Below, one piece after another: positions 11,941 through 64,000 of a stretch of 64,000 nucleotides of DNA. The stretch is from Eledone cirrhosa (Eukaryota), in assembly GCA_964016885.1 (NCBI GenBank), contig OZ024761.1, forward strand, positions 5,022,001 to 5,086,000. Reading direction: 5' to 3'. The position numbers and the translations under genes were made by a program. The notes below the pieces were generated by a model. The model worked only from the letters and a program-made list of their open reading frames with translations. It had not been told where the DNA came from and made no database searches. Positions within the stretch are counted from its first letter, which is position 1; each line of letters starts with the position of its first letter.

Positions 11941-11983
<43 letters not shown>

Positions 11984-12316
11984 CGTTTCTGAATTTGTTT
12001 AGCAAGATTCTTTATCTGAAATCATGTGTTGAAACCGATATTGTTATACTTTGGGAGGGTCATGTTGCCAATAAGAAACACACGCACCAGTTGCTTTCAC
12101 TTCAATTTATTATATATTTATAAATTTATAAATTTACAAATCTACAAACTAATAAATTATAAATTTCTGGTTGGTTGGTTGGTTCCACAACCAGATAGTT
12201 GTTTATATATAGTCATATATATATATATATAGGTATTAGGGTGCAAATTAATTGTGTCCATAGGCAGTATGACAAATGAGCACTCAATGCTCTTGGGGAG
12301 CAGAGTATCAATAGCA

Positions 12317-12576: not shown

Positions 12577-12667
12577 TAGATAGATTAAGAGGGACGGGGC
12601 TGTGTGGTTACTGATAATGAGTGTTAGAAAGTAAAAGAAACATGAACAAGAGATAGACATTTTCCTT

Positions 12668-12732
12668 TCATCAGTTGTCTACTACGGATCACAGATGTTT
12701 CAGCATATTATAGACAATACATCTATCCGTAG
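12668..12732 (-). ncRNA. Permuted, pseudoknotted hammerhead-like motif with k-turn, copy 1
   Basis: Minus strand CTACGG-ATA-GATGT-A-TTGTCTA-TAATATGCT-GAA-ACATC-TGTGAT-CCGTAG-TAGACAA-CTGATGA. Confidence 0.7.
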
Positions 12733-12774
12733 CGCGCCCATAACTTATTATCAAAATGTTATATATATTTATAT

Positions 12775-13112
12775 GGAGGCACATGGCTTAGTGGTTAGCG
12801 CATTGGGCTTGCAATCGAAAGGTTGTGAGTTCAATTCTCAGACCGGGTGATGTGTTGTTTCCTTGAGCAAGACACTTTATTTCACATTGCTCCAGTTTAC
12901 TCAGCTGTAGAAATGAGATGATAGGGACGGGGGTCCCTATCATTCCACTGCAAAGTGGTCGTGGAGGTGCCACGGCAAAAAAGCACCCAGCACTCACTGT
13001 AAAAATGAGGTTGGTGTTAGGAAGGGCATCCAGCTGTAGAAATCAAGCCAGAATCAGTTCCCGTCCCACCCTTGCAAGCAGGGAAAAAGCGGACGTAAAA
13101 TGAAATGATGAA
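12775..13112 (+). mobile_element. tRNA-derived SINE with CORE/Meta-like central domain and RTE-like 3' tail
   Basis: A box TGGCTTAGTGG, B box GAGTTCAATTC, CCTTGAGCAAGACACTTT..CTCAGCTGTAGAAATGAG, GAT-repeat tail; near-identical copies at 36161 and 62391. Confidence 0.88.
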
Positions 13113-28826: not shown

Positions 28827-29066
28827 TATATATATTTTTTTTTATACTTAAATGATAAACACTTATTTTATTTGCCCTGTTTACTGGAGTCTTGATTCAG
28901 TCTTGTTAATTAAGTGTTCAGTTTGTTGAGAAAACTGTTATAAAATGATAGTGTCGTTAATTTAGTGTTCAGTTTGTTGAGAAAACTGTTATAAAATGAT
29001 AGTGTCGTTAATTTAGTGTTCAGTTTGTTGAGAAAACTTATAAAATGATAGTGTCGTTAATTAAGT

Positions 29067-29172
29067 GAACAGCGAGAGTGCAAACAAACAAAGATGGGGA
29101 AGCAACGATTGATTCGTTCTTCCTCACTTTTCGTTGCTTTACCATCTTTGTTTGTTTTCACTCTCGCTGTTC
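29067..29172. repeat. 42-bp inverted repeat just upstream of permuted hammerhead copy 2
   Basis: GAACAGCGAGAGTGCAAACAAACAAAGATGGGGAAGCAACGA / TCGTTGCTTTACCATCTTTGTTTGTTTTCACTCTCGCTGTTC. Confidence 0.85.
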
Positions 29173-29217
29173 CCTTTATTTACATGTCCCAACGACTTTC
29201 TTTAGCCGTTGCTCGCA

Positions 29218-29282
29218 CCAACCGGAGGTATATGGTCTTTAAAGCGAAGAAATACCGATGATGGTTGGAAGATCACTGATGA
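29218..29282 (+). ncRNA. Permuted, pseudoknotted hammerhead-like motif with k-turn, copy 2
   Basis: CCAACC-GGA-GGTAT-A-TGGTCTT-TAAAGCGAA-GAA-ATACC-GATGAT-GGTTGG-AAGATCA-CTGATGA. Confidence 0.75.
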
Positions 29283-29352
29283 AGGACCACTTTATTCATA
29301 TGTAACCCATTTGCAACTCCGCAGCACGTTTATTCTCATATATATATATATA

Positions 29353-62390: not shown

Positions 62391-62724
62391 TCATCATTTC
62401 ATTTTACGTCCACTTTTCCCTGCTTGCAAGGGTGGGACGGGAACTGATTCTGGCTTGATTTCTACAGCTGGATGCCCTTCCTAACACCAACCTCATTTAC
62501 AGTGAGTGCTGGGTGCTTTTTTGCCGTGGCACCTCCACGACCACTTTGCAGTGGAATGATATGGACCCCAGTCCCTATCATCTCATTTCTACAGCTGCGT
62601 AAACTGGAGCAATGTGAAATAAAGTGTCTTGCTCAAGGAAACAACACATCACCCGGTCTGAGAATTGAACTCACAACCTTTCGATTGCAAGGCCAATGCT
62701 CTAACCACTAAACCATGTGCCTCC
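62391..62724 (-). mobile_element. tRNA-derived SINE (same family as 12775)
   Basis: Reverse complement of 12775-13112 with few differences. Confidence 0.88.
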
Positions 62725-62804
62725 ATATATGAATCAAAATGGCGAGCTGTGTTGTTGCAATTAAGTATAATGAAAAATTAGAAATTAGAAGTTAGGATTA
62801 TCCA

Positions 62805-62869
62805 TCATCAGTTGTCTACTAGACATCATAGGCATTTCTTTGTGTTAAAGACAAGATACCTCAGCCTAC
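62805..62869 (-). ncRNA. Permuted, pseudoknotted hammerhead-like motif with k-turn, copy 3
   Basis: Minus strand GTAGGC-TGA-GGTAT-C-TTGTCTT-TAACACAAA-GAA-ATGCC-TATGAT-GTCTAG-TAGACAA-CTGATGA. Confidence 0.72.
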
Positions 62870-63419
62870 GGCGAAACAATAACTAAAGTAAGTTATTGGG
62901 ATAAAAAGAAGTGGGTGGAGAAAGAGAAAGACATGTAAACAAACACGATGGGTGAAGCAACGTAAAGAGAGGAAAAAAGGAAAAAATTAAGTCAATGGCT
63001 TTGGCCTCGCCATGGACACGAGGTTTCTGGCAAGGGCAACGTTGGTAGAGAAACCTGTACACCATTTGGGACACGATTTCACATCGAAAACAAATTAGTT
63101 TGTATGGAAAACAGCTGGTCCTCTACAGTCTTATTACTCTGGAGTTTCACCATTTAGCCATATTCGAAGATAAGAACGGGCGAATTTTGACGAGGAGAAA
63201 AAGACAGCATCTTGACCGTAGCAGTGTGAGCAAGAAAGACTGCATACAGTGTTGGACGATGGAGGAAGTGAGAGAGAGGGTGAGTAGCAGAGAGTGAGTG
63301 AGTGAAAATGCGAGGAAGAGGCTAGCCGAGAGAGGGTGACTAGCAGAGGGGGTGAGTGAAAGTAAGAGGGAGAAGGATAAAGAGAAGGGGAGAGAGAGAG
63401 GATAGCAGCAAGAGAAGAG

Positions 63420-63454
<35 letters not shown>

Positions 63455-63672: not shown

Positions 63673-64000
63673 TTTATTTACAATCCTTTAAAATATATAT
63701 AATGGTATTATAATGAAATAGTATGATAGAATATTAAATTCTAAGTGTTAATTGAACAAGTACTTTCATGCTTTCGCAATCTTCAGGTTCATGATATGTG
63801 GTGACAGTCGAGTTTTCAATTTTCAACTGTAATAATCTCATTACAGTTGAAAATTGCAAACTCGACTGTCACCACATATCATGAACCTGAAGATTGCGAA
63901 AGCATGAAAGTACTTGTTCAATTAACACTTAGAATTTAATATTCTATCATACTATTTCATTAGAATACCATTATATATATTTTAAAGGATTGTAAATAAA
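63673..64000. mobile_element. Near-perfect palindrome (arms 63673-63833 / 63840-64000+), Penelope-like fold-back
   Basis: 161-bp arms with a 6-nt loop and only a couple of mismatches; a hammerhead in each arm. Confidence 0.85.
63882..63920 (+). ncRNA. Minimal type I hammerhead ribozyme (mirror copy 63753-63791 -)
   Basis: TGAAC-CTGAAGA-T-TGC(GAAA)GCA-T-GAAA-GTACTT-GTTCA; stem I TGAAC/GTTCA, GNRA-capped stem II, palindromic AGTACT stem III. Confidence 0.85.

Follow-up and report, generated by a model that had tools for sequence, protein, structure and literature searches.

Three copies of a predicted hammerhead ribozyme with the block order cleavage site, GAAA, CUGAUGA (S-G-C order) occur in the window, i.e. 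the whole stretch of 64,000 nucleotides of Eledone cirrhosa DNA analysed here, and in each of them stem III is interrupted by an internal loop which, judged from its letters, matches the kink-turn (k-turn) consensus. The best explanation appears to be a protein-independent k-turn hinge in stem III of this scrambled-order ribozyme, a reading to which we give about even prospects. Direct reading of all three copies returned the loops as the original prediction had described them. Its claim of a 3x6 internal loop holds for the letters of all three but not for the minimum free energy fold of the 12668 copy, where a 4x1 loop is the ground state because A-U and U-A can pair in Watson-Crick manner. 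The 62805 and 29218 copies agree with the sequence definition of a k-turn, including A.G at 2b.2n, whereas the 12668 copy has A.U at this place and is a non-standard k-turn, the weakest case of the three. The canonical helix 5' of the three-nucleotide bulge is complete (5/5 pairs) in all window copies. A descriptor composed of core letters and stems, devoid of k-turn letters, gave three matches in the window; each of them shows G1b, A2b and A1n, whereas 100 random windows of matched composition gave no match. The chance of these three letters occurring together is 0.018 per loop. The Rfam scan of the window listed 63 matches with no hammerhead among them, all below the gathering score and mostly microsatellite look-alikes.

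The 62805 copy lies on the reverse strand and its stem III covers exactly 62819-62869. At its 5' side the 5' strand of the closing helix P0 (62899..62904) pairs with 62798-62803, reading GUCC/GGAC or AUCC/GGAU in different families, and is followed by the P1 hairpin (62877..62898), which folds in all families of the type seen in the three window copies and in the metagenome and RLE copies introduced below. The 5' leader (62870..62874) serves as 5' strand of stem II and is decayed in this copy (2/5 pairs). Then the outer (NC) helix of stem III begins with its non-bulged strand (62864..62869), which pairs with the bulged strand 62819..62824 (5/6) and is supported by covariation. The non-bulged k-turn strand 3n-2n-1n (62861..62863) reads U-G-A, and the 3' strand of the C helix, including U16.1, occupies 62856..62860 (5/5 pairs). 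By analogy with the hammerhead core, C17 is 62855 and cleavage is predicted between 62855 and 62854. The apical loop of stem III contains the 5' strand of stem I (62848..62854, 6/7 pairs with 62812-62818) together with the UAA linker and the 3' strand of stem II, 11.6-11.1 (62839..62847). Core GAAA (G12-A15.1) was read directly at 62835..62838, and so was the following segment 62825..62834 with the 5' strand of the C helix, the bulge UAU (62830-62828) and GAU at 1b-3b (62827-62825). Finally, 62798..62818 comprises the 3' strand of stem I, CUGAUGA (62811-62805), 10.1 and the 3' strand of P0. The whole copy resides in a non-coding U/C-rich repeat unit (62725..63422, reverse strand, ends approximate) bounded by a (TA)n run at 63423-63450 and a SINE-like repeat at about 62725.

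The 29218 copy (29186..29287, forward strand) has bulge GAU at 29257-29259 and GAU at 29260-29262 facing the partner GGA at 29224-29226, with U.G at 3b.3n, between a C helix of 5/5 and an outer helix of 6/6 pairs. In the 12668 copy (12663..12767, reverse strand), a member of family B with U at 2n, the bulge UGU (12693-12691) and GAU (12690-12688) face AUA (12726-12724), and the two helices are again complete (5/5 and 6/6). Every window copy bears a lesion outside the loop: weak leader pairing in the 62805 copy, A.A at 10.1.11.1 in the 29218 copy and a lost P0 5' strand in the 12668 copy, caused by truncation beside a SINE-like repeat. Several further features were observed in the window. An inverted 5'-truncated junction upstream of the 29218 copy (29066..29173) is the source of false MIR6462 matches, and the 5' strand of stem I in this copy (29233-29239) can also pair fully with 29283-29289, the seven bases that follow CUGAUGA, in an alternative fold that would be inactive. 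Segments 62500-62725 and 12771-13050 represent one SINE-like repeat that adjoins two of the ribozyme copies, and its orientation with respect to the adjoining copy differs between the two places; its head presumably resembles a tRNA. At 63786-63887 there is an inverted duplication with CUGAAGA on both strands that gives a false mir-6302 match.

Leaving pseudoknots aside, covariation shows P0 enclosing P1 and stem III, a long hairpin whose apical loop of 20 nt would have to dock on single strands of the multiloop. In 82 distinct rows, which had been selected for pairing in stem I and inner stem III, two-sided changes affect 22/24 pairs, and 89% of cells are paired in comparison with 73% after shuffling and 32-49% after sliding. 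The helices that had not been selected for behave likewise, with 89% of cells paired in outer stem III and 80% (79.8%) in the leader helix, in which 5/5 pairs show two-sided changes. All seven pairs of stem I changed on both sides, and in the C helix four of five did, with 95.9% of its cells paired in copies selected for at least three of these pairs. The UAA linker is kept in 86/87 copies and the pair 10.1-11.1 covaries. An ordinary strand of stem II is missing after CUGAUGA; instead, the strand before GAAA pairs with a leader of 5-6 nucleotides directly 5' of stem III. Family A forms just 10.1-11.1 in the ordinary manner (84% of cells). In families C and E, in the RLE elements and in the metagenome copies, 11.1 can be paired by the leader as well, and A9 leads into P0, which abuts P1. 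This split of stem II and a second link of 0-1 nucleotides (from leader to stem III) were absent from the original prediction.

Strict patterns, which yield lower bounds, detected at least 10,887 copies of family A in the 3.0-Gb E. cirrhosa genome, at least 50 of family B, at least 226 of C, at least 5 of D and at least 100 of E, each without a single control match. The value of 10,887 is used since a first genome count of 16,559 was rejected: chance matches had inflated it, and so had a canonical type I family, to which 6 of the first 30 loci belong. That separate and abundant (about 1500) type I hammerhead repeat, seen in L001-L004, L011 and L027 with a spacing of about 466-470 nt, had matched the first pattern by chance. 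The original prediction had proposed conservation of both GA dinucleotides in further copies as a check. In an unbiased sample of 30 family A and 30 family B loci, fetched with patterns lacking k-turn letters, G1b occurs in 58/60, A2b in 60/60 and A1n in 58/60 copies (29/30, 30/30 and 29/30 in either family); 2n is G in 28/30 copies of family A but U in 27/30 of family B. Depending on the family, position 2n is occupied by G, U or A, all of them states described for Kt-7 and Kt-23. Two sister subfamilies were also observed, namely L069, L072 and L122 with an extra U on the non-bulged strand, and their sister L034, L070 and L071 in which a G is missing and the length is restored with U at 2n.

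As young copies are alike everywhere, the contrast between lineages weighs more. Fourteen representatives were compared (8 own-genome clusters with at least two copies and 6 metagenome copies, 14 single-copy clusters being left out), and in these G1b, A2b and A1n never vary and 2n is G or U, while most helix columns take 2-4 states. Because the query for the six metagenome rows contained the k-turn letters, only the eight own-genome rows count, some of them first picked by a search that included GAU; in 8/8 of these lineages the three letters are invariant and the helix columns again take 2-4 states. Thus the k-turn assignment of the original prediction is strengthened by key G and A positions that stay constant in lineages whose helices covary, and by a 2n position that takes known k-turn states only. 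The letters of the hammerhead core and the NUH triplet are likewise kept across lineages.

Conservation of the loop ends in families C and E, which lack the motif and its G.A at 1b.1n. Family C1, a near sister of family B according to their common P1, has the partner strand AUC in 6/8 copies, A1n in 0/8 and thus a plain three-nucleotide bulge. In family C2 (25 family C loci were examined) a 6-nt insert is located on the opposite strand, and family E shows a 4x2 loop devoid of tandem G.A, with CAAA in 12/25 and CA in 15/25 copies. Both families have spread despite this loss, with 226 and 100 matches. Judged from these alignments, the break in the helix keeps its place across families and the k-turn does not; since families C, E and some Naiads use other loops, the k-turn is not obligatory. 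By count, k-turn families dominate. Family C1 (L311, L316, L309) has GUU as cleavage triplet, and in comparison with family B one pair is missing from both stem I and the leader helix. Family C2 carries a self-complementary hexamer AUCGAU in the extra loop of stem III and often also in the loop of P1 (L312, L314, L315, L318, L321-L327, L329-L332), a possible dimer contact.

Related folds are found in other elements. Metagenomes were scanned for the letters of core, UAA and k-turn with no demand for pairing, which gave 44 matches; in 11 of these all stems pair in the same register, and the remaining 33 are chance or partial matches. The 11 copies are unrelated GC-rich sequences (two represent one element); all of them have G2n though U was allowed, and U occupies L3 in 10/11. 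Eight of the 11 are located 3' of a reading frame that we take to encode a restriction-like endonuclease (RLE) motif. A protein search, with no RNA letters in the query, led to such elements in the E. cirrhosa genome, where 19 of the best 20 RLE loci carry the fold or a damaged copy just 3' of the stop codon. L387 and L409 are one place, and the alignment extends over the ribozyme. In 13 weaker loci the fold is present in four (two with k-turn, two without tandem G.A) and absent in nine. The loop of the main RLE family would be built of G.A, A.A, U.G and A.A, with AGAA on the n-strand in 17/18 and GAU-GAUA on the b-strand in 13/18 copies; the strands may alternatively pair in a shifted register with G2n. 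L403 comprises a unit of 3,599 bp with a reverse transcriptase (RVT_1, E 5e-14; zf-RVT weak); 5' of this unit its 3' end is present a second time over 611 bp, i.e. L403 is a partial-tandem RLE element with a seamless tail-to-head junction, and the same junction occurs in L388 and L401. The carrier may belong to the HERO clade of RLE non-LTR elements. The search for a PDB relative of the RLE region found none, and of 86 pattern matches in viral contigs none had paired stems.

Naiads, a group of Penelope-like elements (PLEs), provide a further occurrence. In the part of the supplement of PMC8557442 that we parsed by eye, two octopus consensuses end in the fold and have a standard k-turn, in three entries a 7-nt bulge separates helices of 13 bp and 9 bp, and one is without tandem G.A. 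This paper reports Naiads without canonical hammerheads and mentions eight "half-core" cases, one of which, an octopus entry, fits the fold described here. The E. cirrhosa genome does not contain the published octopus Naiad motif in its exact form, and therefore no autonomous partner is assigned to families A-E; letters shared between the P1 loops of family A and that Naiad are at most a hint. Repeats carrying the window copies are non-coding and U/C-rich with units of 445-630 nt, and form tandem and inverted truncated arrays at (TA)n; the L006 and L056 arrays have one hammerhead per unit. A neighbouring Neptune-like PLE (L131) was rejected as carrier because a type I hammerhead of its own is present in its 3' repeat (L131:2779-5224) and the motif occurs near only 1/29 loci listed. 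It encodes reverse transcriptase and GIY-YIG domains with weak Pfam scores and targets (TA)n like the ribozyme repeats. A 3' fragment of a Neptune-like PLE was also seen in the window at 11944-12230 between two (TA)n runs, and fragments of a second Penelope-type ORF lie near several ribozyme copies in both orientations (L071, L072, L075, L149, L184).

Might the letters be conserved by descent or for another cause, the loop being just a flexible bulge, or the whole fold a non-cleaving binding site of the element's reverse transcriptase? Loss of the motif in families C and E would agree with this, and so would genomic copies that run through and past the predicted cleavage site and the inclusion of k-turn letters in the metagenome query. 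The 5' junctions at (TA)n are not enriched at the predicted cleavage site either (2/23 listed places), a test confounded by the fact that most listed places lie at TA microhomologies. On the other hand, the motif recurs in RLE copies and in L408 and L417, which were found without RNA letters in the query, and in Naiads retrieved without k-turn letters, and all core letters with the NUH triplet persist across lineages. We regard such an explanation as highly improbable.

In the hinge reading that we prefer, stem III would be bent back on itself by the kink, which is located five pairs away from the core, and the apical loop would then dock on the single strands at the base of its own stem and form stems I and II, by which CUGAUGA, GAAA and the cleavage triplet would be assembled. 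Fraying end pairs could provide slack. Mg2+ and docking itself would stabilise the kink, so that A.U and A.A at 2b.2n would be tolerated and other bends could replace it. Predicted cleavage would cut tandem retroelement transcripts into unit RNAs that could be joined into circles and copied into head-to-tail arrays. What the data show is sequence, covariation and distribution; bending, docking, cleavage and circles are the parts of this scheme which we infer.

The original prediction held that a sharp bend would let the end of stem III meet that of stem I with a zero-nucleotide linker, and it had suggested 3D modelling. A crude rigid-rod estimate with an assumed hammerhead geometry supports the need for a bend: the far ends of stem III and stem II, joined by 0-1 nt that can reach 7-13 Å, would be about 60 Å apart with a straight stem III, 42-45 Å with a mild bulge and 16-25 Å with a kink of 50 degrees, about the angle of simple k-turns, in which A1n and A2b receive A-minor bonds. 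Hence, in this model of rods only, the kink is needed but may not suffice in one molecule. The link often measures one nucleotide instead of zero, as 33/82 distinct own-genome rows and 14/17 rows of the mixed alignment fail to form the last pair of stem I. The last pairs of the leader helix are also often mismatched, and such end pairs give slack and support fold-back in one molecule.

The residual gap makes a strand-swapped dimer a live rival, unlikely as we judge it, in which the apical loops of two repeat units dock in each other's bases and two k-turns close a parallelogram; cutting would then be expected mainly in tandem transcripts or at high concentration. Rods arranged in a 50/130 degree parallelogram keep the long helices 22-29 Å apart without clash, and the long-arm Naiads (13 bp, 7-nt bulge, 9 bp) could not fold back in the same model since their return arm is too short and 36-42 Å would be left. 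Copies stand in tandem and inverted arrays, and axolotl retrozyme hammerheads cleave far better as dimers (excerpts of PMC7229834). Covariation is blind to docking in cis or in swapped form. However, an assumed geometry underlies the rods and frayed end pairs could close the gap, RLE units carry one ribozyme per 3.6 kb, and RNAs of type SGC, among them some whose links have 0 nt, are cleaved while being transcribed, in an oligomer state not given in the sections of PMC10085705 consulted.

Tuning by a protein, with host 15.5K/Snu13 or another member of the L7Ae family binding the k-turn and switching cleavage or religation, seems rather improbable. L7Ae proteins prefer U at L3, and this letter is found in 12/14 lineages besides the metagenome copies, together with a purine at L2 in 14/14, i.e. 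12/14 lineages have a bulge end RU of the box C/D type. L3 is conserved although it makes no RNA contact, and ions by themselves are not enough to fold box C/D k-turns (both from excerpts of PMC5061560). U.U at 3b.3n occurs in 5/14 lineages, one of them with U at 2n, and the host encodes PF01248 proteins (7 matches), as expected in any animal. Against such tuning, U at 2n in 27/30 family B copies removes the contact to O6 of G2n, families C and E are without the motif, and 7/14 lineages have C at 3b or G at 3n without a Watson-Crick pair, for which folding with Mg2+ only is predicted. Combining both ideas, one may imagine a natural ring-shaped hammerhead in which two k-turns close the swapped dimer, two unrelated retroelement classes (RLE LINEs and Naiad PLEs) need the encounter of two units to cut their RNA, and host 15.5K/Snu13 locks the kink and gates retrotransposition; this we consider a doubtful construction.

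If the protein-independent hinge is correct, it offers a structural answer to the question of Eckert et al. how distant helix ends are joined without a linker. Non-circularly permuted hammerheads would move from environmental RNA into animal retroelements with more than ten thousand copies. Naiads would obtain the ribozyme they were reported without, and the life cycle of RLE-type LINEs would include RNA in circular or multimeric form. With standard, Kt-23-like, plain bulge and other loops, nature provides a series on which the folding rules of k-turns could be tested by measuring cleavage, and if 15.5K binding altered cleavage, this would be a natural protein-gated small ribozyme.

With standard k-turns (Kt-7, box C/D, U4, SAM-I; excerpts of PMC5061560) the loop shares the C helix, the three-nucleotide bulge, G.A and A.G pairs and C-G at -1, but here it is placed five pairs from the core of a small ribozyme and its families are standard, non-standard or have lost it. 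A common function of k-turns is to bring a terminal loop to a receptor some distance away, and that of the SAM-I riboswitch sends its loop to a receptor in the same role as proposed here; RNase P is the known ribozyme with a k-turn, replaceable by another bend, and impaired k-turns are rescued by tertiary contacts or substituted by other bends (same excerpts). Listings of the open-licence literature contained no publication that describes a natural hammerhead with a k-turn. A.U or A.A at 2b.2n, as seen here, is known from Kt-23 (excerpts of PMC2790904 and PMC3985660). The RLE family resembles it further, since U.G and A.A at 3b.3n and 4b.4n match the outer pairs of T. thermophilus Kt-23 (PMC2790904, in part) and A2n corresponds to the adenine of T. 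solenopsae Kt-23 (PMC3985660, in part). Family B differs by combining A.U with C.A or U-A at 3b.3n, without the supporting pairs of Kt-23, and G2nU stops ion-induced folding of Kt-7 (excerpts of PMC2790904). Non-LTR retrozymes and PLE hammerheads have the same non-coding tandem units with one hammerhead each, inverted truncated copies and (TA)n targets (PMC7229834, PMC8557442 and bioRxiv 10.64898/2026.07.22.740005, each in part), but use type I ribozymes (PMC7229834) in contrast with the S-G-C order in 445-630-nt units described here.

Closest are the type SGC ribozymes (HRIMA-1 and variants, Eckert et al. 2023), for which we relied on selected parts of PMC10085705 unless stated otherwise. They have the same block order of cleavage site, GAAA and CUGAnGA with a full core and a 3-nt link from stem I to stem II, and an unexplained link of 0 nt leaves the far end of stem III, which that paper poses as a structural problem yet to be solved; the words "kink" and "k-turn" do not occur in main text and supplement. 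The CSG-1 alignment of type-CSG ribozymes in that supplement shows a UUAA link between stems I and II, similar to the invariant UAA here. The hosts are different (animal retroelements instead of environmental RNA), and stem III comprises 14 bp with a kink, compared with 5 bp in shortSGC-1 as read from its oligos. The order S, G, C with full core is present and stems I and III are supported by covariation, but an intact block C, with the 5' strand of stem II directly after CUGAnGA, was not found: block C is split at A9/10.1 or 10.1/10.2 by the junction of P0 and P1. Because its stem II is derived from the 5' leader at a four-way junction, the predicted ribozyme departs from type SGC; it would work like this type, although without the intact block C, and we regard it as a variant.
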